64,000 nucleotides of DNA. Source: an uncultured bacterium. GTDB lineage: Bacteria > Bacteroidota > Bacteroidia > Bacteroidales > CAIXTV01. Of this stretch, positions 17,057 to 55,143 are shown piece by piece (position 1 is the stretch's first letter; every line of letters starts with the position of its first letter). The stretch lies in assembly GCA_903922465.1 (NCBI GenBank), contig CAIXTV010000078.1, positions 3,624 through 67,623 on the forward strand, read 5' to 3'. The notes beneath the pieces are model-generated. The model saw only the letters and a program-made list of their open reading frames with translations. It was not told the origin of the DNA and did no database searches. The position numbers and the translations under genes were made by a program.

Positions 17057-17076
17057 CATTTTAAATAATTAATTTT

Positions 17077-18783: not shown

Positions 18784-18814
18784 GTTTCATAGGTATTTGA
18801 AATCAAATTTACAA

Positions 18815-18852: not shown

Positions 18853-18860
18853 TACTTTTG
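18853..18860 (+). promoter_or_regulatory. -7 promoter box TACTTTTG
   Basis: TAnnTTTG match 24 bp upstream of the gatE ATG. Confidence 0.45.
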
Positions 18861-18883
18861 ACGCAAAATTAAAGACCTGCTGA

Positions 18884-39537: not shown

Positions 39538-39601
39538 TTTAATCTTAATTAATTCTGTTTGTAGCTTAAAACCAATTATTTGGTTAAATTCTTATTGTCG
39601 G

Positions 39602-39609
39602 CAAAAGTA
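39602..39609 (-). promoter_or_regulatory. -7 promoter box TACTTTTG on the minus strand, for nifJ
   Basis: The plus strand reads CAAAAGTA, 65 bp upstream of the nifJ ATG. Confidence 0.4.
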
Positions 39610-39943
39610 TAAATTCTTTTTGGTTATTTAAAACATTTAGGGCTAAAGATTTTTTATTGTTGCTTATTTTGAAACTATATAAAAAAGGACCAAGCAACTA
39701 TGATGTTCTAACTATCTGAAATATCATGAATGTCTACTTAAAAGGATTTAGGTGACAAGGAGCAAATTATTACAGGAACAACCAAAAATTGTGCTTCCGT
39801 TTGACGCAATTGCTGTAAAACATCTATCTTAATCAGCAAAAATTATTTTTTAAACCTTATTAGGAAACATGCACTTATATTAATTTTGCTTCCTTTTAAA
39901 GGCCTAAATCAGGGTAAAATCTAATTTATGTGTATTATTTGTG

Positions 39944-40507
39944 ATGGAAGATACCGAATTATTAAAACGACTCAAAGCTGGGGATAAAACTGCCTTTACT
40001 GAGTTGGTATCTATATACGCAAGCAAGGTTACCAATACTTGTTACCGTTTTTTTCTCGACAAGCAAGATGCTGAAGATATTTCACAAGAAGTATTTATTG
40101 AAATATATCAATCGATTAGACATTTTAAAGGAGATGCAAAGCTTTCGACATGGATATATCGCATTGCAGTAAGTAAAAGTATGGATGAAATTAAACGCCG
40201 TAATCGCAAAAAACGTTTTGAATCAATTGGCAAACATCTTCATCTTGATGAATTTGCAAATTGGATATCGGGAGGCCACATGCCCGATGAAAGAATAAAT
40301 GAAAAAGATAAAATGAAAGAAGTGATGCAGGCTTTAAACACATTAGCCGAAAACCAAAGGATTGCATATACCCTAAGCAAAATTGAAGGCTATGGTAATA
40401 AAGAAATAGCAGAGATTATGAAAACAAGCACCCTTGCCGTTGAATCATTGATATACCGTGCAAAAAAGAAAGTGAGCAAGGCATTAGAATTGATTTTGAA
40501 AAAATAA
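39944..40507 (+). CDS. ECF-type RNA polymerase sigma-70 family factor
   Basis: Region 2 (DAEDISQEVFIEIYQSI...STWIYRIAVSKSMD) and region 4 HTH (NKEIAEIMKTSTLAVESLIYRAKKK). Confidence 0.9.
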   Translation: MEDTELLKRLKAGDKTAFTELVSIYASKVTNTCYRFFLDKQDAEDISQEVFIEIYQSIRHFKGDAKLSTWIYRIAVSKSMDEIKRRNRKKRFESIGKHLHLDEFANWISGGHMPDERINEKDKMKEVMQALNTLAENQRIAYTLSKIEGYGNKEIAEIMKTSTLAVESLIYRAKKKVSKALELILKK

Positions 40508-40559
40508 TCAAGCAATACCGCCAGAAATCAAAATACTTGTCGTCTAACAAATAAGAATA

Positions 40560-40865
40560 ATGAAAGAATTAGCCTTACATATTGAAGTAACACAAAGCCT
40601 CCTAGAGTTTGAAACCCTTAAAGACATTGAGATTTCAGCAGAATGGGAACAGTCATTAATCAACAGAATTAATAAATCGAAACTTCATTCTTTATCACGC
40701 TTATCTTTGAATATGTTTGTTGTTACCATATTAATTATCTTGTTCAACCTGAGTTTTATATTGAATATCTTAATCCACAATTCCCCTGCTTCTTCCTCAC
40801 ACCAAAGAGATTTGCAAATGATTTCGAAAGACTTTTTGATTAATCCTGTTTCATTAAACAAATAA
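40560..40865 (+). CDS. Small single-pass membrane protein, putative anti-sigma factor
   Basis: Called from its position after the sigma gene and one TM segment (MFVVTILIILFNLSFILNILI). No zinc anti-sigma motif is present. Confidence 0.45.
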   Translation: MKELALHIEVTQSLLEFETLKDIEISAEWEQSLINRINKSKLHSLSRLSLNMFVVTILIILFNLSFILNILIHNSPASSSHQRDLQMISKDFLINPVSLNK

Positions 40866-40868
40866 ATC

Positions 40869-41369
40869 ATGGACCTATTCACTCAAAAAAAACTGTTAAT
40901 ACGCATTATCATCCTATTGATTGCTCTTAATTTGCTTTCCTTAGGTGCGTTTTTGTGGAAAAATTGTTCCCAATCCCATCCACCAGAAAATTGCAAGAAA
41001 ATTGAAAGAGGAGATGTTTCAGGAGTACTTAAGAAAGAGTTAAACCTGAATGAAAACCAATTTATACAAGTCACAAAACTAAGAAACTTATATTTTCAGA
41101 AAGAAAACATAATCTCTGAAGCTGTGCGCTCAGCAAGAGATTCAATGAATCAATTGATGTATAGCAGCAAAAATCATGAAGCATTAATAGTGGACCTTGC
41201 TCAAAAGGTTGCCGAAAAAGAATTTCAGATGGAAATGCTTCGATTCGAACAAGCAAAAGCACTTAAAACCATTTGCACCCCTGAGCAAATGGAAAAATTC
41301 GAAAGATTGGTAAAAGAAATCAGGGATTATTTTAAACCTGAAAATTCAAACAAAAGAAAAGAAAAATGA
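40869..41369 (+). CDS. Periplasmic Spy/CpxP-like (LTXXQ-type) helical protein
   Basis: N-terminal TM/signal segment and LNLNENQFIQVTKLR...FQMEMLRFEQAKALKTICTPEQMEKF helical repeats. Confidence 0.55.
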   Translation: MDLFTQKKLLIRIIILLIALNLLSLGAFLWKNCSQSHPPENCKKIERGDVSGVLKKELNLNENQFIQVTKLRNLYFQKENIISEAVRSARDSMNQLMYSSKNHEALIVDLAQKVAEKEFQMEMLRFEQAKALKTICTPEQMEKFERLVKEIRDYFKPENSNKRKEK

Positions 41370-43021
41370 CAATTAAGTATTATTCAACACTTAAAAACAA
41401 CTTTACGGCCTTAGCCGCTTTTTTATTATTAACTATAAATGCAGCAGCACAAACATTTACCGAAATATTGGGTAGGCCAACTAATAATTCCATCACGGTA
41501 AGCATCTTATTTAATCAAAATGTAAACATATATGTTGAATATGGCACGGTAGCGGGAGTATATACTAATTCAACAACTCAAATTAGCAACATTGTTAACA
41601 CCCCCGATGAAATTGATTTAACAAATCTGACACCTGATACCAAGTATTATTATAGAACAAGATATCGTTCAACTAGCTCAGGAGCTTTTCTTTCAGGCAG
41701 CATGCATTCCTTCCACACACAGCGTAGTTCCGGAAGTACATTCACTTTTACCTTAGAAGCAGATGAGCATTTGTATGACAAAAAGGGTGTAAAAAGCATT
41801 TATCAGCTATGTTTGAATAATCAGGCTCAGGATAAACCTGATTTTATGTTGAGTTTAGGTGATATTTTTGGTGATGATCACAATCCATTTACCATTACTG
41901 CAGCTCAGGTAGATTCACTTCATAAGGATTATTTGCCTTATCTTGGAAGTATCTGTCATTCGGTTCCGTTTTATGTTTGTCTGGGAAATCATGAAGGTGA
42001 ATTTGATTATTATTATGCTCAAACGCCTCCCAATAATTTGGCAATATGGGGAACCTTATCGCGAAAATTTTATTATCCAAATCCTTATCCTAATGCTTTT
42101 TATTCCGGTAATACTGATGTAGAACCTTACGGAATTGGCAATCCCGAAAACTATTATGCATGGACATGGGGAGATGCATTATTTGTTGTACTCGATGCTT
42201 ATCGCGATCAATGCGATACTTCCGTAAAACCCAAAAGTTGGAACTGGTCTTTAGGTCTGCCGCAATATTCCTGGTTTAAGAATACCCTAGAAGGAAGTTC
42301 CGCTAAATATAAATTTGTTTTTATTCATCAGCTCAGGGGTCAGGGAAGAGGAGGTGTATTAGATGCTCCCTTTTATGAATGGGGTGGATATGAGGCAAAT
42401 GGTACAAATTATAGTTTTACGACTAACCGTCCAGGCTGGGATAAACCTATTCATCAACTCATGAAAGACAACAAAGTAAATATTTTATTTCATGGTCACG
42501 ACCATCTTTTTTCACATGAAGTGTTGGATAGTATCGTGTATCAGGAATGTCCCATGCCCAGTGATTCGACTTATGAGATAGGGATGTTAGCAAATGCTGA
42601 CGCTTATGCTACCGATACTATTGGAGGTTCGGGTCATCTTAGGGTAACAGTTTCTCCTGCATGTGTTAAGGTAGATTTCGTACGCGTGTATTTACCTGCT
42701 GACACACTCAGCGGCCTTCATCATAATGGAGAAGTTGCATTTAGCTATACCATTGGTAATTGCGTCTCTACTGATATAAATACATTAAAATCCGATCCTT
42801 TTATTAAAGTGTATCCAAATCCAGCAAAATATTTTGTGAAGATAGAATTGCCTGAAGGAGTAAATCATTCTACGAATATCTTACTTGACATGATTGGTCA
42901 AACTGTATTGAAAACTAATTCTAATGACATTGATTTGACCCACATTCCTAATGGAATATATTTCTTAAATATAAAAACCGCAAAATTTGAAATGAATAGA
43001 AAAGTCATTATAAACCGATAA
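41366..43021 (+). CDS. Secreted metallophosphoesterase with PAP/PhoD-like N-terminal domain and T9SS type A C-terminal sorting domain
   Basis: Signal peptide, YYYRTRYR beta-sandwich, LGDIFGDD, CLGNHEGE and GHDH. C-terminus is VYPNPAKYFVKIEL...GIYFLNIKT. ATGA overlap with the preceding gene. Confidence 0.8.
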   Translation: MTIKYYSTLKNNFTALAAFLLLTINAAAQTFTEILGRPTNNSITVSILFNQNVNIYVEYGTVAGVYTNSTTQISNIVNTPDEIDLTNLTPDTKYYYRTRYRSTSSGAFLSGSMHSFHTQRSSGSTFTFTLEADEHLYDKKGVKSIYQLCLNNQAQDKPDFMLSLGDIFGDDHNPFTITAAQVDSLHKDYLPYLGSICHSVPFYVCLGNHEGEFDYYYAQTPPNNLAIWGTLSRKFYYPNPYPNAFYSGNTDVEPYGIGNPENYYAWTWGDALFVVLDAYRDQCDTSVKPKSWNWSLGLPQYSWFKNTLEGSSAKYKFVFIHQLRGQGRGGVLDAPFYEWGGYEANGTNYSFTTNRPGWDKPIHQLMKDNKVNILFHGHDHLFSHEVLDSIVYQECPMPSDSTYEIGMLANADAYATDTIGGSGHLRVTVSPACVKVDFVRVYLPADTLSGLHHNGEVAFSYTIGNCVSTDINTLKSDPFIKVYPNPAKYFVKIELPEGVNHSTNILLDMIGQTVLKTNSNDIDLTHIPNGIYFLNIKTAKFEMNRKVIINR

Positions 43022-43075
43022 AATTAATCTAATCCTTTATTCTTAGTCTTTAAAAATAACACCATAAATCAATCC

Positions 43076-44740
43076 ATGAAATTTAGCAAAATTAACTTCC
43101 TAATCATTTTCACAATTACCCTTATTAGCAAGCTTGCAATCAGCCAAACCTTTAATGAAATATTAAGCAGACCAAGCAACAACTCTATTACCATGAGCAT
43201 TTTGTTTGATCAGTCAACTGAAGTGTATTGGGAATATGGATTAACTTCAGGAACTTATACTGCAAATACTCCCACCTATAACGCTGATACGAATTCAGCA
43301 CTTATGGTTGATTTTGCAAATCTTCAGTCTAATAAGAAATATTATTACCGTACTCGTTATAGGGCAAGTGATTCTACCTCTGCATTTCTTGCTGGAACAG
43401 AGCATACTTTTAGAACCGCAAGAACATCTGGAAATACCTTTACTTTTGCTATTGAAGCCGACCCTCACCTTGATACCAACTCACTACTTTCTTCATATAC
43501 CTTAACCCTTCAAAATATTTTATCTAAAAACCCTGACTTTCTAATTGATTTGGGTGATATTTTCATGTCGGAAAAACTACCTGTAATTAATCAAACTGAA
43601 ATAAGCAATCGTCATAAGTTGTACCGACCTTTATTTGGAGCTATCTGTCATTCTGTCCCGCTATATTTAGTTTTGGGTAATCATGAAGGAGAGTTAGGAT
43701 GGCGATTAAATAATACAGACACATGTTTGCCTGTGATGGCTTCAAAAATACGTAAAACATTCTATGCAAATCCTCTACCGAGCACCTTCTATACTGGGGA
43801 CAGCATTCCTGAAAATTTCGTTGGGCTTCGTCAAAACTATTACGCATGGGAATGGGGCAATGCCCTTTTTGTTGTTCTGGATCCATTTTGGTATACAATC
43901 ACTAAACCTGATTGGGGCTGGACCTTAGGTTTGGCGCAATATAATTGGTTTAAAAATGTATTGACAAACAGTCAGGCTAAGTTTAAATTTGTTTTTTGCC
44001 ACAATCTGGTTGGAGGCAAAGGAAACGATGCACGTGGGGGCTCTGAATATGCAGATTTCTTTGAAATGGGAGGAAATAATGCAGATTCTATCTGGGGTTT
44101 TGATTTTAGTAGACTAGGTTGGCAAAAGCCCATTCACACACTGATGAGAGAAAATAACGTGAATGTTTTCTTCCATGGTCACGATCATTTTTATGGGAAA
44201 CAGGATAAAGATGGGATAGTATATCAGGAAGTTCCTCAACCATCAAATAAAAACATTACGAATATATCAGCAGCATTATACGGTTATGTTGATGGTGTAT
44301 TATTGCCCGGACGAGGTTATCTATTGGTTACAGTTACTGATACGAGTGTTAAGGTAGATTATATAAAGACCTATCTTCCAAATGAGGAAACCGGAGGTCA
44401 CAGTAATCAAGAGATGGGTGCTACTTATACAATATTCTCAACCTCTACAGGAATAGAAATAGCAACTCCTTCAACATTAAAATTAGAACAAAATTATCCC
44501 AATCCTTTTAATAATGAAACAACAATAAAATATGAAATCCCCTCAAAAAATAATGTGACGATTAAAGTTTTCGATATCTTTGGAAGAGAAAAAGCTACAT
44601 TATTAGATAAAGAACAGCATGTCGGAAAACATTCCATAAATTTAGATGCAAATAAATTGTCATTAAGCAGTGGAATATATTATTGCAAGCTTTCAATTGG
44701 TAAGGAATCTAAAAGTATAAAAATAATTTGTATAAAATAA
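43076..44740 (+). CDS. Secreted metallophosphoesterase, paralog of 41366..43021, with T9SS type A sorting domain
   Basis: Same motif set (LGDIFMSE, VLGNHEGE, GHDH). C-terminus is NYPNPFNNETTIKYEI...GIYYCKL. Confidence 0.8.
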   Translation: MKFSKINFLIIFTITLISKLAISQTFNEILSRPSNNSITMSILFDQSTEVYWEYGLTSGTYTANTPTYNADTNSALMVDFANLQSNKKYYYRTRYRASDSTSAFLAGTEHTFRTARTSGNTFTFAIEADPHLDTNSLLSSYTLTLQNILSKNPDFLIDLGDIFMSEKLPVINQTEISNRHKLYRPLFGAICHSVPLYLVLGNHEGELGWRLNNTDTCLPVMASKIRKTFYANPLPSTFYTGDSIPENFVGLRQNYYAWEWGNALFVVLDPFWYTITKPDWGWTLGLAQYNWFKNVLTNSQAKFKFVFCHNLVGGKGNDARGGSEYADFFEMGGNNADSIWGFDFSRLGWQKPIHTLMRENNVNVFFHGHDHFYGKQDKDGIVYQEVPQPSNKNITNISAALYGYVDGVLLPGRGYLLVTVTDTSVKVDYIKTYLPNEETGGHSNQEMGATYTIFSTSTGIEIATPSTLKLEQNYPNPFNNETTIKYEIPSKNNVTIKVFDIFGREKATLLDKEQHVGKHSINLDANKLSLSSGIYYCKLSIGKESKSIKIICIK

Positions 44741-44752
44741 AATCTTAGAATT

Positions 44753-47008
44753 ATGTGTAAAAAAATCAGCATTCTTCTTTTCCTGGGAATATGTTTCTCT
44801 GGCATAAAAGCTCAAAAATTACTCCCATTTAAACTTCCTGAAACTGGGCAAACTACAAGCTATACAACAACTCATGGAGAAGATTCGGACTATCTTATCA
44901 ATTCTCTATCCTTTACCGATAAGGGCGATGGAACCATAACCGACAACAACACCGGACTAATGTGGCAAAAGGTTGATGGTGGAGAAATGACAAATGAAAG
45001 TGCGATTACATTTAGTAATAATTTGATTCTTGGCGCTTATAGTGATTGGCGTTTACCAACAAGTATTGAGTTGTTTAGTATAAACAAATACTCACTTGCA
45101 AATCCAGCCTTAGATACAGCTTACTTCACAAAAACCTTAGCTGAATATTGGTGGACAAATGAAAAACAAGCAGGAGATACCACTAAAGTTTGGGTGGTGA
45201 ATGCAGGTGGTGGTATTGGTGCACATCCTAAATCAGAAACAGTAAGTGCAGGTGGAACAAAAAAAATCCATGTCAGGGCAGTAAGGAATATTTTTGGTAC
45301 AAGTTTTTCGTTACCACATTTTACCGATAATGGAAACGGTACAATTAAGGATAACTATACAGGTTTGATATGGCAAAAAATTCAATCTCCTGATACCTTA
45401 TCTTGGGAAGACGCTCTTACTTACGCAAATAATTTAACTTTAGCAGGAAAATCTGATTGGAGGTTACCAAATATTAAAGAGTTGCAATCGCTGAATGATG
45501 CGACTATTCACAATCCCTCATTCAATCATATATTCTTTACAAATGTTACTTCTGGTAACTATTGGACATCTACCACTCTACTGCAGCAAACTCCCACAAA
45601 GGCATGGGATTTAAATGTTGATTACGGCATTGTTTCCTATAATGATAAAACAAGAAAAGAAAACGTACTTTGTGTTAGAGGAGGCGTGGATAATCAGGAT
45701 ATGAATTTTTCTGAAGCTTTAATCCCTGCAGGGGAATATGCAATGGGTGACCATTTTGGTTTTGTTGACCCAGGTCATCCAAGTGATGAGTCACCAATCC
45801 ATACCGTTAAAGTAGACTCGTTTTATATGTCAAAGACTGAAACTACCAATCAACAGTTTTTGAACTTTTTGAATTCATACTTATTAAATGGCTTATTACA
45901 GGTTACAAGCAATACTGTCTACCTAACAGGTGACACGAATATTCTTTGCTATACAAACCAGTCTGCATCTTATTATAGCATCAGTTACAATGGAAGTTTA
46001 TTTTCACTAGCTGACTTCAGAGCCTATCATCCAATGACCGGGGTGTTATGGTTTGGTGATATTGCCTTCTGTAACTGGCTAAGTTTACAAAATGGGCTTC
46101 AAGAATGCTACAATCTGCATACAGGTGATTGTGATTTTGCTAAAGATGGCTATCGTTTGCCAACAGAAGCTGAATGGGAATGGGCAGCCCGAGGAGGACA
46201 CACTAATCCTTATTTAAAATATGAAATCGGAGATACAATCAATAGAAGAGCAGCGAACTTGCCCAATTCAAGCGATCCTTATGAAGGAACCAATGTAGCC
46301 TTATATCCTTTTACTACTCCTGCCGGTTTCTTTGATGGAACATTGAAACAAAAAACCGATTATAATTGGCCTGGAACTGCTGCCACTTATCAAACAGACA
46401 ATAGTGCTAATGGCTTTGGGTTATACGATATGCAAGGCAATGTTTGGGAACTTATCAACGATTGGTATGGACAAACCTATTACAGTTCAAGTCCCTATGA
46501 TAATCCCACGGGTCCCACCTCTGGATTCATCATGCCTGATGGAAAACCATACAGAGGAATGCGTGGTGGAAACTGGTACAATGGTCTCGATTCGAATGGA
46601 GTGAACGATGGACATTCAAGAGTATCAAATCGCAACCCTTCTTATTATCGCGGACCTCAAGATCCCAATCATCCATGGTATCATATAGGCTTTAGAGTGG
46701 TAAGGAAGTACACTGCTATTCCTTCAGATGTGCAGAATTTACAAGAAGAAAAAGGAAGTTTGCAAGTTTATCCAAATCCAGCTTCCTCAGAAACCACAGT
46801 AAAGTTCGAATTTTTACAAAATGCTGATGTTTCTCTGAAAATTTACAGTCCTCTTGGGCAATTGCTTTCTATTTTGTTTGAAGGAAAACTATCTCAAGGA
46901 GAACATTCTTTCCAATGGAATGCTCAAAAGGTTGCTGTTGGAATGTACACTTGTATTTTGACTACAAATAATATGACTTCAACACATAAAATATTAATCC
47001 TTAAATAA
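44753..47008 (+). CDS. Secreted protein: two DUF1566 (Lcl-like) modules, an FGE-sulfatase-family domain and a T9SS type A sorting domain
   Basis: DWRLPTSIELFSI and DWRLPNIKELQSL mark the DUF1566 modules. GYRLPTEAEWEWAARGG, GNVWELINDWY, MRGGNWY and IGFRVVR mark the FGE-like fold. C-terminus is VYPNPASSETTVKFEF...GMYTCIL. Confidence 0.8.
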   Translation: MCKKISILLFLGICFSGIKAQKLLPFKLPETGQTTSYTTTHGEDSDYLINSLSFTDKGDGTITDNNTGLMWQKVDGGEMTNESAITFSNNLILGAYSDWRLPTSIELFSINKYSLANPALDTAYFTKTLAEYWWTNEKQAGDTTKVWVVNAGGGIGAHPKSETVSAGGTKKIHVRAVRNIFGTSFSLPHFTDNGNGTIKDNYTGLIWQKIQSPDTLSWEDALTYANNLTLAGKSDWRLPNIKELQSLNDATIHNPSFNHIFFTNVTSGNYWTSTTLLQQTPTKAWDLNVDYGIVSYNDKTRKENVLCVRGGVDNQDMNFSEALIPAGEYAMGDHFGFVDPGHPSDESPIHTVKVDSFYMSKTETTNQQFLNFLNSYLLNGLLQVTSNTVYLTGDTNILCYTNQSASYYSISYNGSLFSLADFRAYHPMTGVLWFGDIAFCNWLSLQNGLQECYNLHTGDCDFAKDGYRLPTEAEWEWAARGGHTNPYLKYEIGDTINRRAANLPNSSDPYEGTNVALYPFTTPAGFFDGTLKQKTDYNWPGTAATYQTDNSANGFGLYDMQGNVWELINDWYGQTYYSSSPYDNPTGPTSGFIMPDGKPYRGMRGGNWYNGLDSNGVNDGHSRVSNRNPSYYRGPQDPNHPWYHIGFRVVRKYTAIPSDVQNLQEEKGSLQVYPNPASSETTVKFEFLQNADVSLKIYSPLGQLLSILFEGKLSQGEHSFQWNAQKVAVGMYTCILTTNNMTSTHKILILK

Positions 47009-47015
47009 TACAAAT

Positions 47016-48809
47016 ATGAAAAAATCAATTTTATTATGTGGCTTTGTAATAGCTACATTGATTGCCTATTCACAGGAAAGTTTTTTTGTTTCCACAGAAA
47101 CAAGGTATTGGGATGCTTCAAAAACCTACAGTGGTTACACACTTTTTGGCACAAGAGGAGTGTCTTATCTCGTTGATATGGAAGGGCACGTTATACATAC
47201 CTGGAATCTTGGCACAAATCCTCGTTTTACCGAATCAGGAACTTTGCTTGACGCCGTTGGTGGAAATCCAAGTAATCAGAATTCATGGAAAGAACTTGAT
47301 TGGAACGGAAATACAGTTTGGCAATACACCGAATCGCGTACTAATTATCATGGGCATCATGATTTTGCTAAAATTTATAACCCTAAACTTGGTGACTCAA
47401 CCTTTATTTATATCGCAAATAAAGACCTGACATCTGCGCAATGTCTCGCTGCCGGTTGCGACCCTGTAAATACCTATACCAATCCTCAAATGGATGCAAT
47501 TGTAGAGGTTAACAGACAAGGAACTGTTATATGGGAATGGTGCTTTTTCGATCATGTTGTACAGGATATAAATTCGAGCTTGCCCACTTATGGAGTAGTT
47601 GCTAATACCCCAGGAAAGATCGATTTAAACATTAGGGGCAACTCTGTCAAAAGCGATTGGATGCATTGTAATTCACTTGACTATAATCAGTCTTTGGATT
47701 ATATCGTTATTAATTCAGTGCATGGTGAGTTTTATGTTATTGACCATGGAAACACCTTTGTGCCAAATTATCCTGATAGTAGCATTCTTAAAGCTGCTTC
47801 GACTCTTGGAGATTTCAAATATCGCTTTGGTGACCCTGCTAAATATGACAAAGGAGATCCTCCCTCAGTTCTTGATAATTGGGAGAAAGCCACTAATGGA
47901 CACAAACAACTTGGAGGTTCACATGACATACAATGGATAAAACAAGGTTTGCCCGGAGCAGGGAATTTCATGGTTTTCTGTAATGGTCAAAATTTGTTTG
48001 AACTTACTCCACAGTCATACATCATCGAAATAAATCCTTATTTAAATTCATCTGGAACTGTGACTTCTGCTTATGTGAATCCTCCAGATGCGGGCTATAA
48101 TGTTGTGAATTCTCCCGACAATAATTTAATGAAGGAAAAGAAAAACATATCAAAACAGGTCGTTTGGAGATATTCAAGTAAAAATAATACCTCATTCTAT
48201 AGTACGATTGGATCAAGTGGGCAGCGATTGCCAAATGGGAATACTTTGATTTGCTCAATGAATGACGGGCACTTTTTTGAAGTAGCTCCATCCGATACTT
48301 CAATTGTTTGGGAATATATCAACCCTATGACTAGAGATGGAATTAAGAAAATAAAACCAGATAATTATCCCACTTATAACGGAGTGTTCAGAGCCTATCG
48401 ATATGCCAGCGACCATCCTGCACTCGTGGGTCAGGATTTGACAGCAGGAAGCACTATGACTGGTTCTACCCCCAGTTATTGGACACCTGCAGACCTTACA
48501 GCAAAAGAGGAAATTAATAACTATTTGAAACCAGAAGATGTGTTAAATCAGAATTATCCTAACCCATTTAATAATTCGACCACCATAGAGTTTAACATAA
48601 CGGAACCTAAAAAAGTAAGTGTTGAGATATTTGATTTCTCGGGCAATCTTGTAAAAACCCTTGTCAATAAATCTTACTCAAAAGGTGATTACACTCTTAA
48701 TTGGGACGCATCAAACGAAAGCGGAAATAAAGTAGCCAGTGGAATGTATTTCTATATTCTCAAAGCAAACAATCAACAGATAACAAAGAAAATGATATTA
48801 ATTAAATAG
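47016..48809 (+). CDS. Arylsulfotransferase (ASST)-like beta-propeller protein with T9SS type A sorting domain
   Basis: Signal peptide and recurring H-centred motifs (HGHHDF, WMHCNSLDYN, IDHG, SHDIQW, RLPNGNTLIC). C-terminus is NYPNPFNNSTTIEFNI...GMYFYIL. Confidence 0.65.
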   Translation: MKKSILLCGFVIATLIAYSQESFFVSTETRYWDASKTYSGYTLFGTRGVSYLVDMEGHVIHTWNLGTNPRFTESGTLLDAVGGNPSNQNSWKELDWNGNTVWQYTESRTNYHGHHDFAKIYNPKLGDSTFIYIANKDLTSAQCLAAGCDPVNTYTNPQMDAIVEVNRQGTVIWEWCFFDHVVQDINSSLPTYGVVANTPGKIDLNIRGNSVKSDWMHCNSLDYNQSLDYIVINSVHGEFYVIDHGNTFVPNYPDSSILKAASTLGDFKYRFGDPAKYDKGDPPSVLDNWEKATNGHKQLGGSHDIQWIKQGLPGAGNFMVFCNGQNLFELTPQSYIIEINPYLNSSGTVTSAYVNPPDAGYNVVNSPDNNLMKEKKNISKQVVWRYSSKNNTSFYSTIGSSGQRLPNGNTLICSMNDGHFFEVAPSDTSIVWEYINPMTRDGIKKIKPDNYPTYNGVFRAYRYASDHPALVGQDLTAGSTMTGSTPSYWTPADLTAKEEINNYLKPEDVLNQNYPNPFNNSTTIEFNITEPKKVSVEIFDFSGNLVKTLVNKSYSKGDYTLNWDASNESGNKVASGMYFYILKANNQQITKKMILIK

Positions 48810-48821
48810 GAGACTCAAATT

Positions 48822-50489
48822 ATGATAAACAAAAAAACAATTACAGCAATTAGCTTATTTTTTCTGTTCTTTACCTTAACTGAAATTTATGGACAAATAC
48901 AAACCATGGGGGTATTCATTAACGATACAGCTAAGGTTTTCAACGGCTATACCCTATTTGCCCCAAAACAAAACAACATGACGTATTTGATTAATAATAA
49001 AGGTCAGAAGATTCATGAATGGACAGCAAGTACCTATCCTCCCGGACAATCAGTTTATTTATTAGAAAACGGAAATATCCTTAGAACATGCATGACACAA
49101 GGAAATCTTGGGACAGGCGGTGGAGAAGGTGGCAGGATTGAAGAATACACTTGGAATGATAGTTTAGTGTGGTTTATGAATTATTCCACCACAACCTATA
49201 TGCAGCATCACGATATTAAAAAACTACCGAATGGAAATATCATTATGTTGGTTGTTGAGAAAAAGACACGTGCTGAAATAGAAGCTGCAGGCTTTGATAC
49301 GGCAACATTTCAACAGCCCGATTTTGGTCAAAAGAACTTTATTTTGCCTGACTGCATCATCGAAATTCAGCCAACATATCCATCAGGTGGCACAGTAGTT
49401 TGGGAGTGGCACGTTTGGGACCATTTGATTCAGACCCATGATTCCACAAAGGCTAATTATGGTGTTCCAAGTGCCCATCCCGAATTGATTGATTGTGCTG
49501 GAGATCATCGTACAAAACCTTTGTTTTGGAATCACATGAATGCTATTGATTACAATCCTACCCTCAACCAAATTGTGATGAGCGTTAGGGGAAACAGTGA
49601 ACTTTGGATTGTCGACCATAGCACAACAACGGCTCAATCTGCAAGTCATAGTGGAGGCGCCAACAATAAGGGAGGCGATTTATTGTATCGTTGGGGAAAT
49701 CCCTTAACCTATGGAGCAGGAACTGTTAGCAACCAAGCTTATTTCGAACAACACGATGTAGAATGGATTAAACCAGGATGCCCCGGGGCTGGCGATTTAT
49801 TGTGTTTTAACAATGGTGTAAACCGCAACTATTCGAGTGTCGACCAAATTACTCCTCCCGTAAATGGCAGTGGCGTATATTCAATTGTTGCAGGTTCGGC
49901 TTTTGCTCCAACCAACTTCACTTGGACTTATCAAGCAACACCTCCAACCTCACTTTATGCGCATGACATATCGGGTGCACAGCGTTTGCCTAATGGAAAT
50001 ACTACTATTTGTGCCGGTCCATTTGGTGCTTTGTATGAGGTTACGGCAGCAGGCGAAGTTGTTTGGAAATATATAAGCCCTGTTGACGAAACAGGTCCTT
50101 TAAACCAATACGACTCCATACATCACAACCCTGTTAGACCTGAAGAAACCATGAATTCAATATTTCGTGTTTATAAATACCCCACAACCTATAGCGCTTT
50201 TATCGGAAGAGATATGACTCCCGGAAATGTGATTGAACTATATCCAACTGGTGTAAATGAAAATCCTTTGAATACAATTCAGGTATATCCAAATCCTTTT
50301 ATTGATAAAATTCATATTAATAATACTTTAGGAAACGAGAATTATGAGTTGTTCAATGCCCTAGGGAAGCTTATTTGGACGGGTAAAAATATCGAAAACC
50401 AAAATTTCAATCATTCGCAAAGGGGGATGTACTTTTTAAAAGTACAAACAAATGATGCTTTTAAAACCTTTAAACTTTTAAAGCATTAG
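48822..50489 (+). CDS. Arylsulfotransferase (ASST)-like beta-propeller protein, paralog, with T9SS type A sorting domain
   Basis: QHHDIKKLPNGNII, WNHMNAIDYNPTLNQIVMSVRGNSELWIVDH, EQHDVEWI and RLPNGNTTIC. C-terminus is VYPNPFIDKIHI...GMYFLKV. Confidence 0.65.
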   Translation: MINKKTITAISLFFLFFTLTEIYGQIQTMGVFINDTAKVFNGYTLFAPKQNNMTYLINNKGQKIHEWTASTYPPGQSVYLLENGNILRTCMTQGNLGTGGGEGGRIEEYTWNDSLVWFMNYSTTTYMQHHDIKKLPNGNIIMLVVEKKTRAEIEAAGFDTATFQQPDFGQKNFILPDCIIEIQPTYPSGGTVVWEWHVWDHLIQTHDSTKANYGVPSAHPELIDCAGDHRTKPLFWNHMNAIDYNPTLNQIVMSVRGNSELWIVDHSTTTAQSASHSGGANNKGGDLLYRWGNPLTYGAGTVSNQAYFEQHDVEWIKPGCPGAGDLLCFNNGVNRNYSSVDQITPPVNGSGVYSIVAGSAFAPTNFTWTYQATPPTSLYAHDISGAQRLPNGNTTICAGPFGALYEVTAAGEVVWKYISPVDETGPLNQYDSIHHNPVRPEETMNSIFRVYKYPTTYSAFIGRDMTPGNVIELYPTGVNENPLNTIQVYPNPFIDKIHINNTLGNENYELFNALGKLIWTGKNIENQNFNHSQRGMYFLKVQTNDAFKTFKLLKH

Positions 50490-50513
50490 AAACCCCTAAA
50501 GACTAAAAAAATT

Positions 50514-50538
50514 AACCTCCTTTTGGGAGGTTTTTTTA
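50514..50538 (+). terminator. Intrinsic terminator closing the eight-gene unit
   Basis: AACCTCC-ttttg-GGAGGTT stem-loop followed by a T-run. Confidence 0.75.
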
Positions 50539-50552: not shown

Positions 50553-50860
50553 GGAATTACTCCTCTTGCCAGACTAAAGGGTCCTCTCACAGGACTAAAG
50601 CTTCCTCCAGCCAGACTAATTGGTCATAGTAACAAGACTAAATAGTCCTATGTATAATACTAAATACTCTGGAGTAGGACCAAATACTCCTGTTATAGGA
50701 CTAATTACTCCTTGTTGTTAGACTAAATAGTCCTCCCAGAAGACTATTTAGTTATACCTCCCAGACTAATTAGTCCTCCATCCGACCAATTAGTCCTCAA
50801 TTAATACTCGAAAGTCTTAAAATAGGAGTCGATAGTCCTCATTTAGGACTTATTTTGGAG
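50553..50860. repeat. Tandem array D: about 14 degenerate copies at about 21-bp spacing of a palindromic motif (A)GGACTAAWTAGTCCT
   Basis: Read directly. The best copies are AGACTAAATAGTCCT (50635, 50720) and AGACTAATTAGTCCT (50763, core GACTAATTAGTC is a perfect palindrome). Spacing is 20-22 bp. Confidence 0.85.
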
Positions 50861-50965: not shown

Positions 50966-51574
50966 TCATTCATCATCGTTATCAATTCCTGCACAACGCC
51001 CTCCGCCATAGCCGGCACATAATCCTGCTCCATTACAAGGACCTTTTCCACCGCCATAGCCAGTGCCATTTCCCGGTCCGTTTCCATTGCCTTTGCCTTT
51101 TCCACGGGGGCGATCTTTTACTTTATTCATCAATTCTCTCTGAAATTCTCTTTCTGCTTTTTGCAGAATAGCTACTTTCTTGATGCTTATCACTTTTTTG
51201 AATTTAGCGAGGTATTCTTTTTTCAAATCTAGCATCTTTTGAGCATGCGTCATTTGGTTGTTAACAAAAGTTTCGGCTTCTTCATTGCTCATTTCGTCAA
51301 CGCCTTTTTGCCTTAAGGCTTTGTTGGTTTCCATCGATTCTTTTCCAATGGCTTCTTTCTTGGTTTGATACTCGTTATAAATGGGCCAAAATACCTTGGC
51401 TTCGTCAGAAGTCAATGATAGTTTTTGAGTGATGAATGCAATCTTTTGCGATTCGATTTTGTCTTTGATTTCTTTGCGTTTTTCTCCTTTTTGCGCCATG
51501 CTTAGGACCGAAAAAGAAAGAAAAATGATCAACAGAGTTGATTTAATAAGCTTTGTAATTTGTGAAGTTTTCAT
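50966..51574 (-). CDS. Periplasmic helical (LTXXQ/Spy-like) protein with Gly-rich, Cys-containing C-terminal tail
   Basis: Signal peptide ...SVLSMAQ and LSLTSDEAKVFWPIYNEYQ helical repeats. The tail reads GKGKGNGNGPGNGTGYGGGKGPCNGAGLCAGYGGGRCAG. Confidence 0.55.
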   Translation of the reverse strand: MKTSQITKLIKSTLLIIFLSFSVLSMAQKGEKRKEIKDKIESQKIAFITQKLSLTSDEAKVFWPIYNEYQTKKEAIGKESMETNKALRQKGVDEMSNEEAETFVNNQMTHAQKMLDLKKEYLAKFKKVISIKKVAILQKAEREFQRELMNKVKDRPRGKGKGNGNGPGNGTGYGGGKGPCNGAGLCAGYGGGRCAGIDNDDE

Positions 51575-51586
51575 ATTTATTTGGTT

Positions 51587-52084
51587 TTAAAGTTCATTTA
51601 TATTGTCAAGGGCATTTTCGTCATCTAAATAATCAATAACATCATCGATGGTGATGTCGTTTTCCTGTATAGTTTTATTTAGATCATATTTTTCAATTGG
51701 AGCTAAAGTATAATTTGTGCCCCTTATCTGTTTCGCCATAGTATCATCAGATTTGAAGAATTTCTTATTTGAATCACCTGCAATAGAAGTGTTGTTGGCC
51801 AAATAAGAAGAAGGCTGATTGTTTTGCATTACAATAAATATTACTCCCGAAACGATGACTATAGCAATAAAGGCAGTAGCTAATCGGTAAACAGGTTTCA
51901 CGAAAGCTTGTGAGAAAAACCCATGAGAGGGAGCATGTATCCTCTTATTGATTTGCAAGGGAAGCGATTCGAAATAATTTTCAGGAACCTCAAAAGGATT
52001 TGCATCCTTATTATTCAATAATGAATTCAACCCGAACTCTTCTTCAGGTATAAACTTATTGGTTGAATTATTATCCGCTTTCAT
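51587..52084 (-). CDS. Single-pass membrane protein, putative anti-sigma factor
   Basis: Called from its position after the sigma gene, the NPFEVPENYFESL motif and one TM segment (LATAFIAIVIVSGVIFIV). The alternative ATG at 52138 would overlap the sigma stop. Confidence 0.5.
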   Translation of the reverse strand: MKADNNSTNKFIPEEEFGLNSLLNNKDANPFEVPENYFESLPLQINKRIHAPSHGFFSQAFVKPVYRLATAFIAIVIVSGVIFIVMQNNQPSSYLANNTSIAGDSNKKFFKSDDTMAKQIRGTNYTLAPIEKYDLNKTIQENDITIDDVIDYLDDENALDNINEL

Positions 52085-52127
52085 TTTTATTGAATTTTGT
52101 ATTATGACTATTAATCTGAATAAAGGT

Positions 52128-52676
52128 TTAATTTCCATTAATAAATTTCTCGATTTTTTTTGCAGCGAGATGATAAGATGCCTTCAAAGCACCTACTGAA
52201 GTGCCAAGTATATCAGATATTTCCTCATAGGGCATTTCTTCATAATAGCGCATATTGAATACCTGTTTTTGTTTTGGTGGAAGTTTTAATAATGCCTTTT
52301 GCAAAATGTGTTCGGTTTGATTGCCCGAGAAGAAGCTATCATCTTTCAACGAATTTATCAAATGTTCTTCGTAATCGCTGAATCGCACAAAATATTTTAA
52401 TTTTTGTTTCTTGATAAAAGAATTGGTTTCATTTATTCCTATGCGGTATATCCAGGTAGAAAGCAAAGCATCTTCCCTGAATTGATGAAGGTTTCGCCAT
52501 ACTTTAATAAATACATTTTGGGTTATATCATCAGCATCTTCATGCTTAAGCACCATGCGCCTGATGTTCCAATAGAGTAGTTTCTGATATTTTTGAACTA
52601 TTAAATTAAAAGCATAATCCGAGGTATCCGCATTGCGGAACTTTTCAAGTAATTCGGAGTCGGTAAATTCGTTCAT
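52128..52676 (-). CDS. ECF-type RNA polymerase sigma-70 family factor
   Basis: Region 2 (DADDITQNVFIKVWRNL...STWIYRIGINETN) and region 4 (YEEISDILGTSVGALKASYHLAAKK). Confidence 0.9.
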   Translation of the reverse strand: MNEFTDSELLEKFRNADTSDYAFNLIVQKYQKLLYWNIRRMVLKHEDADDITQNVFIKVWRNLHQFREDALLSTWIYRIGINETNSFIKKQKLKYFVRFSDYEEHLINSLKDDSFFSGNQTEHILQKALLKLPPKQKQVFNMRYYEEMPYEEISDILGTSVGALKASYHLAAKKIEKFINGN

Positions 52677-52772: not shown

Positions 52773-53729
52773 TTATTTCTTTCGGCTAATTGCTTTAAGG
52801 GCCGCATCCACAATGTGATGAGCTTCGAGGCCGTATTTTTCGAGTAATTGTTCGGGAGTTCCACTTTCGCCAAATTTATCATTCACAGCAACCATTTCCA
52901 AAGGAGTTGGCATATTGCATGATAAGTATTGAGCAATACTGTCGCCCAATCCTCCATTCATCATATGTTCTTCTGCCGTAACTACACATTTGGTTTTGCT
53001 TACAGAGAGTTTGACTGCTTCAACATCCAAAGGTTTAATCGTATGAATATTGATAATTTCGGCACTGATGCCTTTTTCTTCCAACATCCGGCATGCTTCA
53101 ATGGCTTTCCAAACCAGATGACCTGTGGCAAAAATACTAACATCAGTCCCTGGATTCAATAAAACTGCTTTTCCAATAATAAAGTCCTGATCGGCAGGAG
53201 TGAAATTGGGAACTTTAGGTCTGCCGAAGCGTAAATATACAGGTCCGACATATTTTGAAACAGCAATGGTTGCGGCTTTGGTTTGGTTAAAATCGCAGGT
53301 ATTGATGACTACCATATTGGGAAGCATTTTCATTAAGCCAATATCTTCCATAATCTGATGCGTAGCCCCATCTTCGCCTAAAGTGATACCTGCATGTGAG
53401 GCACAAATCTTTACATTCTTATTTGAATAGGCAACCGATTGACGAATTTGATCATACACTCTTCCGGTAGCAAAATTAGCAAAGGTTCCTGTAAAAGGAA
53501 TCTTCCCTCCTATGGTCATGCCCGCGGCTAGGCCTATCATATTAGCTTCAGCTATTCCTGTCTGGAAAAAACGTTCAGGAAAGAGAGAGGCAAATTCGTC
53601 CATTTTTAATGAACCCGTTAAGTCAGCACACAGGGCAACAATATTATTGTTCCTTTGGGCAGCTTCAACTAATCCTGCGCCAAAACCCGAGCGGGTATCT
53701 TTCATTTCTGTGTATTCGAAAATATTCAT
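52773..53729 (-). CDS. Transketolase, C-terminal (pyrimidine-binding) subunit
   Basis: GIAEANMIGLAAGM and EDGATHQ. Length is 318 aa. Confidence 0.9.
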   Translation of the reverse strand: MNIFEYTEMKDTRSGFGAGLVEAAQRNNNIVALCADLTGSLKMDEFASLFPERFFQTGIAEANMIGLAAGMTIGGKIPFTGTFANFATGRVYDQIRQSVAYSNKNVKICASHAGITLGEDGATHQIMEDIGLMKMLPNMVVINTCDFNQTKAATIAVSKYVGPVYLRFGRPKVPNFTPADQDFIIGKAVLLNPGTDVSIFATGHLVWKAIEACRMLEEKGISAEIINIHTIKPLDVEAVKLSVSKTKCVVTAEEHMMNGGLGDSIAQYLSCNMPTPLEMVAVNDKFGESGTPEQLLEKYGLEAHHIVDAALKAISRKK

Positions 53730-53741
53730 GTTCTGATAGTT

Positions 53742-55133
53742 TTATTGATATAAGTTGATGCGGACAGTAGCCCCCGATTCAACTTTAAATTTCTTTTCTA
53801 TGGTATAAAGTGATTTATTGACAAACTTTGCACGAAAAACCACTCTATAGTTTCCGGGTAGCAGTATTAATGATTCCTGTTGTTCGTTTTCCCTTAGATT
53901 ATAAATCAATTCCAATTTATTGTCTTTTTCTAAAAACAAACCCCCATAACCATTAATTGTTTTTTGTATTACAGCTATACCCGGCATTGGGATTTCAACC
54001 GTGGTGGTAAAGCTTTGTTTTATATCTACATCGTTTATTTTCAAACGGGGAAGACTTAATATTTCGAGGTCGTACTTTCCGGTTATGTATTTCTCAATTT
54101 GATCGAAGGTTTGCACATTGATGGTTTCCATTTTATCCTTCTGACGGACGATGCATTGGATATCCTTTACGTTTTTGAGGCCACCACCCAAAACTCCCAG
54201 CTTAAGATATCCCTGAGGGCAACTCACCGGAATTATGGTATGTTTTCCTGGGGTAAGACTAACGTTTTTTACTCCGGTTGGAGGAATGGTATGCACTACA
54301 ATATCATATTTCAGTAGGGGGTCAATAGAAAGGGTATCGGGAAGCCCTTTTCCATTAAAAGTGTGTATGAAATTATATTTGATCAATCCTGAATAATTAT
54401 CAAAGAAAGTCATATTCACATTGGTTTCTGTGGGATTGTTATCCTCATCCAATAAATTCACCTGAGCTGTGGTGGAATTGAGTGCCTGAGAAATCACCAC
54501 ATTTAATGCTTTGGTAAAATCAGCTTCTTTTGAAGCATCGAAATAAGTCCCCACGCAATCAAATGCAGCTTTGAAATCTTTTCCTATTCCGATGATAAAA
54601 GGCTTTAATATAATACCTTTCTGTTGCAGCATCTTCGACACTGCACAGGGATCGCCCTGGCATTCTTCCAAACCATCGGTAATGAGGATAATTATATTCC
54701 TGCAGTTATCGCAGGCATTGAAATCATCAGCGGCAAGTTCGAGTGAACGAGCGATGGGTGTGGTCCCTCTGGGGATTAAGGCTTTAAGGACATGACGAAT
54801 TTTGGTAGTATTATTAAGTCCAATAGGCACTTCTAATTTTGAGTCGTCGCAATCCTGAGGTGGGAAATCCTTTTGATGGCCATATACCCTTAATCCAATT
54901 TCGAGAAAAGGAACATTTTTAATGCTATCGAGAAGGTTAGAGAGGAGTTTTTGTGCAATCGTAATTTTGCGGTCGCTCTGCCATTTGGCATACATACTTT
55001 GAGAAGCATCGAAAATGAATAAAATACGAGTAGTTTTATTGGCTTGAGGTTTTTCGCCAAGCACCTGAGCATTTGTGTGCCCAAGCAAAGCCAGCATAAA
55101 CAACACTATTATTCCGTTTTTAATGAATCTCAT
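53742..55133 (-). CDS. Secreted von Willebrand factor A (VWA) domain protein with C-terminal beta-rich region
   Basis: Signal peptide MRFIKNGIIVLFMLALLGHTNAQ, MIDAS motif FIFDASQSM and IILITDG. ATG 55133 was chosen because the track ORF start at 55217 overlaps the upstream gene. Confidence 0.75.
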   Translation of the reverse strand: MRFIKNGIIVLFMLALLGHTNAQVLGEKPQANKTTRILFIFDASQSMYAKWQSDRKITIAQKLLSNLLDSIKNVPFLEIGLRVYGHQKDFPPQDCDDSKLEVPIGLNNTTKIRHVLKALIPRGTTPIARSLELAADDFNACDNCRNIIILITDGLEECQGDPCAVSKMLQQKGIILKPFIIGIGKDFKAAFDCVGTYFDASKEADFTKALNVVISQALNSTTAQVNLLDEDNNPTETNVNMTFFDNYSGLIKYNFIHTFNGKGLPDTLSIDPLLKYDIVVHTIPPTGVKNVSLTPGKHTIIPVSCPQGYLKLGVLGGGLKNVKDIQCIVRQKDKMETINVQTFDQIEKYITGKYDLEILSLPRLKINDVDIKQSFTTTVEIPMPGIAVIQKTINGYGGLFLEKDNKLELIYNLRENEQQESLILLPGNYRVVFRAKFVNKSLYTIEKKFKVESGATVRINLYQ

Positions 55134-55143
55134 GTGTTTTATT

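Follow-up and report, generated by a model that had tools for sequence, protein, structure and literature searches.

The question raised by this locus is whether a row of genes from seemingly unconnected families forms a single system and, if it does, what that system might do. The locus lies in a 64,000-nt stretch of contig CAIXTV010000078.1 (assembly GCA_903922465.1) from an uncultured Bacteroidales bacterium, the whole of which is referred to here as the window. Its eight genes, g1 to g8, comprise an extracytoplasmic function (ECF) sigma factor, a small membrane protein, a periplasmic LTXXQ protein, and five predicted exported proteins: two metallophosphoesterases, a protein with the fold of the formylglycine-generating enzyme (FGE) and two β-propellers resembling the arylsulfate sulfotransferases (ASSTs). 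Overall, we conclude that the unit is an operon for a coherent, conserved and self-contained cell-envelope system, the existence of which is far more certain than its substrate.

A conserved cluster and its core

Calling of open reading frames (ORFs) in the window defined eight intact ORFs, head to tail on the + strand between 39944 and 50489. The intergenic gaps from g1 to g8 are, in order, 52, 3, -4, 54, 12, 7 and 12 bp, the -4 bp value being an ATGA overlap of the g3 stop and g4 start codons. A single other ORF of at least 100 codons lies within the unit; it encodes 122 aa in another frame inside g7. The features are as follows, T9SS denoting the type IX secretion system, CTD a C-terminal sorting domain and PAP purple acid phosphatase.

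39538-39943, + strand: presumed promoter region of the unit, a 403 bp ORF-free gap common to the divergent pyruvate:ferredoxin oxidoreductase (PFOR) gene
39941 (GTG) or 39944 (ATG) to 40507, + strand: g1, ECF-type sigma-70 factor, 187 aa from the ATG, with Sigma70_r2 and Sigma70_r4_2 domains
40560-40865, + strand: g2, small single-pass membrane protein of 101 aa with one transmembrane segment, candidate anti-sigma factor
40869-41369, + strand: g3, predicted membrane-anchored periplasmic LTXXQ protein (PF07813; CpxP/Spy/CnrX superfamily)
41366-43021, + strand: g4, predicted exported metallophosphoesterase, PAP/PhoD-like, with Fn3-like N-domain, Metallophos domain and T9SS CTD (profiles and AlphaFold2 (AF2) model)
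43076-44740, + strand: g5, predicted exported metallophosphoesterase, paralogue of g4 (Metallophos; TIGR04183, 45.7 bits)
44753-47008, + strand: g6, predicted exported lectin-like protein with two Lcl_C/DUF1566 domains (about residues 60-309), an FGE-sulfatase-fold domain (322-651) and a T9SS CTD (672-749)
47016-48809, + strand: g7, predicted exported ASST-like β-propeller, diverged paralogue of g8, with T9SS CTD (PF05935, 2.1e-11; TIGR04183, 46.2 bits)
48822-50489, + strand: g8, predicted exported ASST-like β-propeller with T9SS CTD (PF05935, 1.4e-16); candidate catalytic His311, codon 49752-49754
50514-50538, + strand: predicted intrinsic terminator closing the unit, with an 8-bp stem, 3-nt loop, U-run and A-tract flank

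The terminator hairpin itself spans 50514-50532, ahead of the U-run, with a folding energy of -12.5 kcal/mol (z = -2.66). From the overlap, the tight spacing and the single terminator, we infer that g1 to g8 form one operon with a single message. The gene order, strand, last five gaps and terminator given in a preliminary description of the locus were reproduced by the ORF and hairpin analysis, and Pfam and NCBIfam profile searches upheld all of its domain assignments for g1 and g3 to g8.

The g8 family is large, with more than 7300 clusters at 90% identity, of which the nearest are 60-76% identical and nearly all come from metagenome-assembled genomes (MAGs) of Bacteroidota; PGAP names these relatives 'aryl-sulfate sulfotransferase'. 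A scan of one genome per species found g8 relatives in 273 genomes. The best 79 loci from these were searched with g1 to g8 by tblastn and all of their ORFs were clustered, co-occurrence being counted in the 32 loci of at least 19 kb. All five exported proteins are encoded on one strand in 23 of the 32, g6, g7 and g8 occur together in 30, and at least one phosphoesterase is present in 27. Some 20 different gene orders were counted, with the cluster genes always on one strand; neighbouring cluster genes are separated by a median of 17 bp, and by no more than 100 bp in 86% of cases (n = 330). The clustering is not a matter of chance, because it recurs in 79 loci of other species. The preliminary description had allowed that the genes might prove not to be conserved together in relatives; they are.

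Only regulators recur as further gene families beside the cluster. No recurring SusC/D pair, glycoside hydrolase or sulfatase was found in the unit or among the neighbours of the relatives, which agrees with, and extends, what had been noted for the window; a polysaccharide-utilisation locus was rejected on this ground.

The most constant adjacency, seen in 68 cases, places an FGE-like gene immediately before an ASST-like one. When g8 was used as query in an exhaustive HMMER search, 1805 clusters at 50% identity (E <= 1e-30) were returned, many of whose representatives are long and multidomain. Pfam analysis of 73 long representatives showed the propeller to share its chain with an FGE-sulfatase domain in nine and with an Lcl_C domain in nine; in one of them, P0343, the order LclC-LclC-FGE-ASST-ASST corresponds to g6, g7 and g8 joined end to end. 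Further domains fused to propellers in this set are mostly anchoring or immunoglobulin (Ig)-like (T9SS tail, PKD, FG-GAP, dockerin), with a few SGL, EF-hand and PBP domains and one β-helix, and no phosphoesterase is fused to a propeller in any of the 73. Distant loci are equally instructive. A contig of 58.5% GC (L087) encodes a sigma factor 26% identical to g1, a small ORF, a Metal_resist protein, an FGE::ASST fusion that is 58-60% identical to g6 and g8, and a phosphoesterase 51% identical to g5, and an Ignavibacteriota genome (L002/L048) has only the sigma factor, small ORF, LTXXQ protein, g6 and g8. In some Bacteroidales, g6 is split into FGE-only and DUF1566-only proteins (cluster 14).

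On these comparisons, the functional core appears to be the FGE-like/DUF1566 protein together with an ASST-like propeller, the phosphoesterases being frequent partners. The eight-gene unit of the preliminary description thus stands as operon-like and co-conserved, with a core narrower than was supposed and a range that extends beyond the T9SS. No published description of a fixed partnership between these two proteins was found in the literature searched, which covered ASSTs with the T9SS, with Bacteroidota and with FGE/DUF1566 proteins. Its frequent association with phosphoesterases of the PAP/PhoD type and with an LTXXQ-type ECF module of its own, and display at the surface by the T9SS, are likewise not described there, and the earlier remark that the combination matches no recognised pathway is borne out to that extent.

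By their record titles, the best 79 loci come mostly from lake MAGs (Lac Pavin, ELA, and Kiruna, Umea, Alinen and Loclat bins), together with one Ignavibacteriota MAG. The window locus recurs in BUCK21-1 metagenome assemblies, which we attribute to the data set of Buck et al. on stratified freshwater lakes and ponds. Among the best 120 matches to the ortholog from a Paludibacter MAG, only MAG or metagenome proteins were found and no cultured carrier.

Some further observations concern the cluster and its family. A third ASST-like paralogue, 34% identical to g8, lies downstream of the cluster in locus L004 (11705-13408). Three giant proteins, P0342, P0345 and P0346, carry two or three tandem ASST-like propellers with FG-GAP or β-helix domains. 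A protein of about 410-450 aa without a Pfam match recurs near the cluster in eight loci (L014, L043, L065, L071, L075 at 16518-17759, L076, L081 and L082).

Features of the exported proteins

The assignment of g7 and g8 starts from the Arylsulfotrans profile PF05935, which they match with 43.9 and 61.0 bits, respectively (cut-off 24.2). The two are 29% identical, and the orthologs of g7, at 62-79% identity, are the most conserved in the cluster. Direct sequence (phmmer) searches with g8 or g7 gave no match to an ASST in the PDB, and the link between g8 and the ASSTs runs only through profiles and a fold search. In the AF2 model of g8 (pLDDT 81), the propeller strands start at about residue 30. 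The best fold match of this model is Cpz4 (9kf6; E 1.9e-14), with TM-scores of 0.47 and 0.57 when normalised to query and target length, respectively, and the next are structures of Escherichia coli ASST (3elq, 3ets and 4p04; E 1.7e-08 to 3e-07); TM-scores lie between 0.43 and 0.57 overall.

E. coli ASST (CFT073) was aligned to a g8 profile with hhalign, which in local mode is reliable for the C-terminal half only. Here, the sulfate-binding ASST residues H356 and R374 align with g8 H238 and R256, respectively, and the sulfurylated H436 with H311 (EQHDVEW against YTQHTAW). All of 84 orthologs and 59 diverse representatives of the family retain H130, H238 and H311 of g8. In g7, the counterpart of H311 is H303, which is invariant in 65 sequences, as are H114/H115, H180, H217 and H244. 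The alignment and the model together indicate that g8 keeps the His residues that perform sulfuryl transfer in E. coli ASST, on an ASST fold. We regard g7 and g8 as distant members of the ASST superfamily in which the His site is plausibly intact.

The resemblance to the periplasmic, homodimeric ASST of E. coli (3ELQ/3ETS) and to BvASST of Phocaeicola vulgatus extends to the PF05935 domain, the six-bladed propeller, an extracytoplasmic location (predicted for g7 and g8) and the conserved sulfo-His and second His (H436/g8 H311 and H356/g8 H238). Chemistry independent of 3'-phosphoadenosine 5'-phosphosulfate (PAPS), which in the ASSTs takes the form of a ping-pong transfer of sulfuryl groups between phenols, is presumably shared as well. 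The differences are that g8 is only some 11-13% identical in structural alignment, that it has no N-terminal β-sandwich and no DsbL/DsbI partners, and that the locus has predicted export by a T9SS CTD, two diverged paralogues and, in every case, an FGE-like/DUF1566 partner or fusion. No paper linking ASST-like proteins with the T9SS was found in the literature searched. Cpz4, the ASST-type sulfotransferase of caprazamycin biosynthesis (9KF4/9KF6), resembles g8 in having a catalytic part of about 450 aa and no N-terminal domain, and sulfates a sugar hydroxyl from an aryl-sulfate donor. Unlike g8, however, it is cytoplasmic and belongs to actinomycete secondary metabolism, its donor being made by a dedicated polyketide synthase (PKS)/PAPS pair; nothing comparable is linked to g8.

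The phosphoesterases g4 and g5 are 42% identical. g4 matches Metallophos (2.8e-09), Por_Secre_tail (1.1e-10) and, weakly, Pur_ac_phosph_N, and g5 gives a weak match to PhoD_N. The best fold matches of the g4 AF2 model (pLDDT 77) are wheat purple acid phytase (6gj9; 1e-17), Bacillus subtilis PhoD (2yeq; 5.5e-16) and kidney-bean PAP (4dhl), over some 500 aligned columns that take in both the Fn3-like N-domain and the catalytic domain. The metallophosphoesterase motifs DxH, GD, GNH(E/D), H and GHxH are all present in g4 and g5, and D133/H135, D166, N208/H209, H321 and H378/H380 of g4 are invariant in 25 sequences, including g5. Every metal ligand of a binuclear metallophosphoesterase is thus retained, within an architecture predicted to be of the PAP/PhoD type. 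As in the purple acid phosphatases and phytases and in Bacillus PhoD, an Fn3-like N-domain in g4 precedes the metallophosphatase domain and the protein is predicted to be secreted. In contrast to the PAPs, the first motif is a generic DxH rather than GDxG (EADEH in g4, EADPH in g5), the sequence GDIF (GDIFG in g4, GDIFM in g5) replaces GDxxY, and a T9SS CTD is added. As the Tyr ligand of the PAPs is absent, g4 and g5 are not purple acid phosphatases proper. HMM and fold searches uphold the families proposed for propellers and phosphoesterases in the preliminary description, and do not reassign them to unrelated, well-characterised ones. Elsewhere, in locus L003 (1624-4107), an SGL (SMP-30/gluconolactonase-like) domain is fused to one phosphoesterase.

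In g6, the Lcl_C profile scores 6.6e-53 and FGE-sulfatase (PF03781) 8e-39, and the PDB sequence matches are FGE (1e-17), TvpA of Treponema denticola and PorK/GldK. At the position where FGE has its Cu(I)-binding catalytic Cys pair, after the RGGS motif, g6 reads RGGNWYNGLDSNGVNDGHSRVSNRN, and no Cys column is found in the FGE active-site region across 53 g6 orthologs. Because the Cu-binding pair is absent, from the window protein and from all 53 orthologs, g6 is not a formylglycine-generating enzyme, and the count of five enzymes in the preliminary description was too high. The FGE-like domain is highly conserved, H334, H342, H350, H426, H621, H640 and H644 being invariant. Its likeness to the FGE (SUMF1) superfamily (FGE, PorK/GldK, GldJ, PvdO and TvpA) lies in the FGE-sulfatase fold, and PorK/GldK, TvpA and PvdO, like g6, are without the catalytic cysteines. 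What g6 adds to this superfamily is two DUF1566 domains, a T9SS tail and a genetic tie or fusion to ASST-like propellers; the literature searched holds no report of an FGE-like protein tied in this way.

The two Lcl_C domains of g6 correspond to the C-terminal domain (PF07603/DUF1566) of the Legionella adhesin Lcl, the collagen-like repeats of which are missing from g6; the binding surface of Lcl is trimeric and cationic. FGE-fold and DUF1566 domains are typical targets of diversity-generating retroelements (DGRs). In the portion of the DGR literature drawn on here, which mentions both FGE and DUF1566, DGR targets are described as ligand-binding proteins of the C-type-lectin fold (PMC11661182), and the C-terminal domain of Lcl binds sulfated glycosaminoglycans (PMC11162425). 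The presence of TvpA among the PDB matches of g6 fits the same picture. With all three domains drawn from lectin-like ligand-binding families, g6 is probably a binding protein or partner rather than an enzyme, and ligand binding would be the simplest reading of it.

Export, regulation and surroundings

All five of g4 to g8 pass the TIGR04183/PF18962 models for the T9SS type A sorting domain, with 37-46 bits (cut-off 23), as the preliminary description had proposed. Their N-termini, read by eye, are signal-peptide-like and hydrophobic with a Gln after the likely cleavage site. In combining a signal peptide with a TIGR04183 CTD, they resemble known type A cargo, such as the gingipains and the secreted enzymes of Flavobacterium johnsoniae. 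Unlike such cargo, orthologs elsewhere replace the CTD with a lipoprotein signal. The clearest case is locus L084 on a 3.0-Mb contig (4785-11476), where the order is sigma, small ORF, LTXXQ, LclC, phosphoesterase, phosphoesterase, FGE, ASST; all five exported-protein orthologs have lipoprotein signals with a lipobox Cys, none has a T9SS tail, and g6 is split into DUF1566 and FGE-like proteins. The module exists independently of the T9SS and outside Bacteroidales. Secretion by the T9SS is therefore not a defining trait, other lineages having lipoprotein signals or fusions instead. At 2003-9763, the window also encodes a 2586-aa protein in which some 26 PKD repeats are combined with a T9SS sorting domain of the CHU_C kind (type B), an observation that supports a T9SS-proficient host.

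Of the regulatory genes, g1 is secure as a sigma factor (Sigma70_r2, 4e-15; Sigma70_r4_2, 3.6e-14; TIGR02937, 90.9 bits against a cut-off of 42.9), and orthologs 57-70% identical to it adjoin the module in about 19 loci. No Pfam or NCBIfam family matches g2, which keeps its place between the sigma and LTXXQ genes in 17 loci and is conserved in an N-terminal 'F-E...W-QSL' element, the transmembrane segment and a C-terminal 'IS-E-LINP-S' tail. g2 is without Cys and is therefore not an anti-sigma factor of the zinc-binding (ZAS) type. g3 matches PF07813 with 25.3 bits (cut-off 24.3) and the CpxP-family model NF009391 at 6e-08, and its orthologs match PF13801 (Metal_resist); a PDB sequence search returned no CnrX, Spy or CpxP. 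No His is conserved across 21 g3 orthologs, so that a metal site like that of CnrX is not supported and a sensor of this type was rejected. An ECF sigma factor, a single-pass membrane protein of about 100 aa and a membrane-anchored LTXXQ/Metal_resist protein also make up the CnrH/CnrY/CnrX system of Cupriavidus, with CpxP and Spy as related modulators, and the layout of the trio is comparable to that of CnrYXH; here, in contrast, the sigma gene comes first and the g3 orthologs have no conserved His.

The trio accompanies the FGE/ASST core across distant lineages, including Ignavibacteriota, L084 and L087. Beside the cluster itself, it is found in only 7 of the 32 long loci, compared with 11 for a pair of LytS-type kinase (PF06580) and LytTR response regulator, and both are present in 2. 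The kinase pair stands beside the five-gene cluster in L010, L023, L024, L034, L039, L046, L058, L065, L071, L074-L076, L081 and L082. This distribution suggests that the two are interchangeable regulators, LytS/LytTR often replacing the trio, as it does in many Bacteroidales. The heading of the cluster by an ECF sigma factor is thus true of the window genome and does not define the system.

Upstream of the unit lies the divergent PFOR gene. Downstream, an unrelated second ECF sigma unit on the - strand (50966-52676) is convergent with g1 to g8; its sigma gene (52128-52676) is followed by ORFs without a family at 51587-52138 and 50966-51574. No Rfam match, to a riboswitch or other known RNA, occurs in or near g1 to g8. 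Just 3' of the terminator, at 50572-50795, there are about 11 copies of the 12-bp palindrome GACTAAWTAGTC, with 0-2 mismatches and a regular spacing of 20-22 bp. This array is absent elsewhere in the window and has no exact copy in 83 relative loci; it looks like a set of sites to which a dimeric protein binds, or else a degenerate tandem repeat of 21/43 bp.

Two further loci in the window deserve mention. GatDE is usually regarded as specific to archaea and would be expected to be redundant beside GlnRS; at 17077-22266, the genes immediately after a bona fide glnS (TIGR00440, 745 bits) exceed the cut-offs of two archaeal equivalog models, gatE_arch (399 bits against 320) and gatD_arch (498 bits against 324). 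At 52773-55989, on the - strand, transketolase is split into an N-terminal gene (55144-55989) and a pyrimidine/C-terminal gene (52773-53729), between which lies a 491-aa ORF with a von Willebrand factor A (VWA) domain (53742-55217) that overlaps the N-terminal gene.

Possible function of the system

We tentatively propose the following working. The small membrane protein g2 would hold the sigma factor g1, and the periplasmic LTXXQ protein g3 would modulate this hold. An envelope signal would free g1, and g1 to g8 would then be transcribed as one message. The products of g4 to g8 would cross the inner membrane via Sec and the outer membrane via the T9SS, and would stay attached to the surface. 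There, g6 would bind an anionic, ester-bearing organic substrate, which may be a sulfated or phosphorylated glycan or the polyphenolic matter of lakes. With a sulfo-histidine as intermediate and no need for PAPS, g8 and probably g7 would take sulfuryl groups off or pass them on, while mono- or diesters of phosphate on the same substrate would be hydrolysed by g4 and g5. As a net effect, anionic ester groups on extracellular organic matter would be stripped or rearranged, so that the material becomes usable or tolerated. This working, taken from end to end, is a serious possibility that falls short of being probable, and the scavenging or remodelling of phosphate and sulfate esters suggested in the preliminary description is a reasonable conjecture.

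Several observations weigh against this scheme. At the active site, R256 of g8 is conserved in close orthologs and not in the wider family, where R290 is invariant instead, and g7 has a His at the position aligned with Arg374 of E. coli ASST. The equivalence of ASST His252 and g8 H130 comes from a weak local match (THESIETPNG against HHDIKKLPNG) that scores 35 against 26 +/- 4.6 for shuffled sequences (about 1.9 sd). The Pfam match begins only at model position 80 in g8 and 55 in g7, the N-terminal β-sandwich being absent from both. The FGE-like domain of g6, so conserved and rich in His, could itself be catalytic. With respect to control, the trio is mostly missing beside the cluster in relatives, and the 220-bp upstream regions of 19 non-redundant sigma orthologs gave no ECF-type two-block motif above the shuffled background, the most frequent pair being present in 7 of the 19 sequences where shuffled controls reach 5-7. 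No sulfate or phosphate transporter is linked to the cluster. Finally, the characterised ASSTs take only aryl sulfates as donors, and their natural substrates, donors and role are unknown (PMC13426309, PMC12809581); action on glycan sulfates would therefore be new chemistry.

A bolder version, which we consider doubtful, makes the FGE-like/DUF1566 protein and the propeller, which many lineages fuse, the complementary halves of an unrecognised extracellular enzyme system. Usually equipped with its own sigma trio and phosphoesterases, this system would act at the surface of anaerobes on polymeric or humic substrates bound by the lectin-like protein, transferring or removing sulfuryl groups without PAPS.

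The same enzymes might instead serve envelope defence, an explanation we judge unlikely. The trio would sense damage by humic or plant phenolics, and surface ASST-like enzymes would sulfate phenols from environmental aryl sulfates, rendering them anionic and membrane-impermeant, with assistance from the phosphoesterases and the lectin-like protein. The regulators are of the envelope-stress type and stay with the FGE/ASST core in distant lineages, and the organism and most of its relatives come from stratified lakes (BUCK21-1, Lac Pavin, ELA, and Kiruna and Umea bins). Stratified lakes of this kind are humic-rich, and the preference of purple acid phosphatases for aryl phosphates counts in the same direction. 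Moreover, phenols and aryl sulfates are the substrates of every characterised ASST, and the role usually proposed for these enzymes is detoxification (PMC13426309, PMC12809581). Defence leaves no role, however, for a three-domain lectin-like partner that elsewhere is fused to the enzyme, a fusion more typical of enzymes acting on polymers, and many relatives use the LytS/LytTR regulator.

Another suggestion, distinctly unlikely in our estimation, is that the propellers are not sulfotransferases at all and belong to a new class of lyase, hydrolase or esterase that reuses the ASST His site on anionic polysaccharides, with the FGE-like and DUF1566 domains as carbohydrate-binding modules. The low similarity to ASSTs (no ASST found by phmmer in the PDB, TM-scores of 0.43-0.57, no N-terminal ASST domain) would then be expected, as would the domains found fused in the family (PKD, FG-GAP, Ig-like, dockerin, β-helix/pectate-lyase-like, SGL, FGE and Lcl_C), which are typical of extracellular carbohydrate-active enzymes. 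Yet the propellers exceed the cut-off of the Pfam ASST model, two genuine sulfotransferases top the list of structural matches, the sulfo-His position and two further active-site His residues are invariant in the family, and no SusC/D pair or glycoside hydrolase is linked.

A slim chance may be given to phosphorus scavenging, in which the PAP/PhoD-like enzymes free phosphate from phytate, diesters or teichoic-like polymers and the propellers are phosphoryl transferases or phosphatases with a His nucleophile. Freshwater lakes, the habitat concerned here, are commonly phosphorus-limited; sulfuryl and phosphoryl transfer are chemically analogous, and the cluster has two intact PAP/PhoD-type phosphoesterases with a purple acid phytase as best fold match. 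The minimal core, as seen in the Ignavibacteriota locus and in the fusions, nevertheless dispenses with phosphoesterases; the regulators are not those of a Pho system, the cluster has no linked phosphate transporter, and no member of the ASST family is known as a phosphoryl transferase.

There is a quite remote chance that the propellers depend on g6 for their maturation or assembly, as sulfatases do on FGE, in which case it would not be a substrate binder. The position of its gene directly upstream of the ASST-like gene in 68 cases, the fusion in several lineages, the seven invariant His residues of its highly conserved FGE-like domain and the enzymatic name that NCBIfam gives to PvdO, which is also FGE-like without the cysteines, would all accord with such a role. 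Against this, the Cu-binding Cys pair is missing, the DUF1566 domains indicate ligand binding, and a permanent fusion would be unusual for a maturase; furthermore, the hosts are anaerobes, as the adjoining PFOR gene suggests, and O2-dependent FGE chemistry is therefore unlikely. The remaining view, that these are unrelated secreted proteins with no joint function that merely share a regulator, is scarcely tenable, being contradicted by the persistence of the five genes together without the trio, through rearrangements, with different anchors, across phyla and as fusions.

Returning to the proposed ester-processing system, every component is from a known family, the logic of the operon is ordinary and no new mechanism is shown. 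More than 40 years of work on PAPS-independent aryl sulfotransferases have left their natural substrate and role unknown (PMC13426309, PMC12809581). In this locus, a lectin-like FGE/DUF1566 protein is the fixed partner of an ASST-like enzyme, as natural fusions confirm, and the two are accompanied by PAP/PhoD-like phosphoesterases and a dedicated envelope sensor, in anaerobic freshwater Bacteroidota and in other lineages. This partnership gives concrete ideas about the enzyme: the substrate may be whatever the lectin-like protein binds, the location would be the cell surface and the trigger whatever the LTXXQ trio senses. Should the sulfate/phosphate-ester reading be wrong, the g8 clade, with its 1805 clusters, would be a large unexplored enzyme family. 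If it is right, the system bears on the turnover of organic sulfur and phosphorus in stratified lakes. And if the two proteins of the core are indeed halves of one enzyme system, they would provide the first physiological context for ASST-type enzymes and a formylglycine-free route for the processing of organic sulfate esters.

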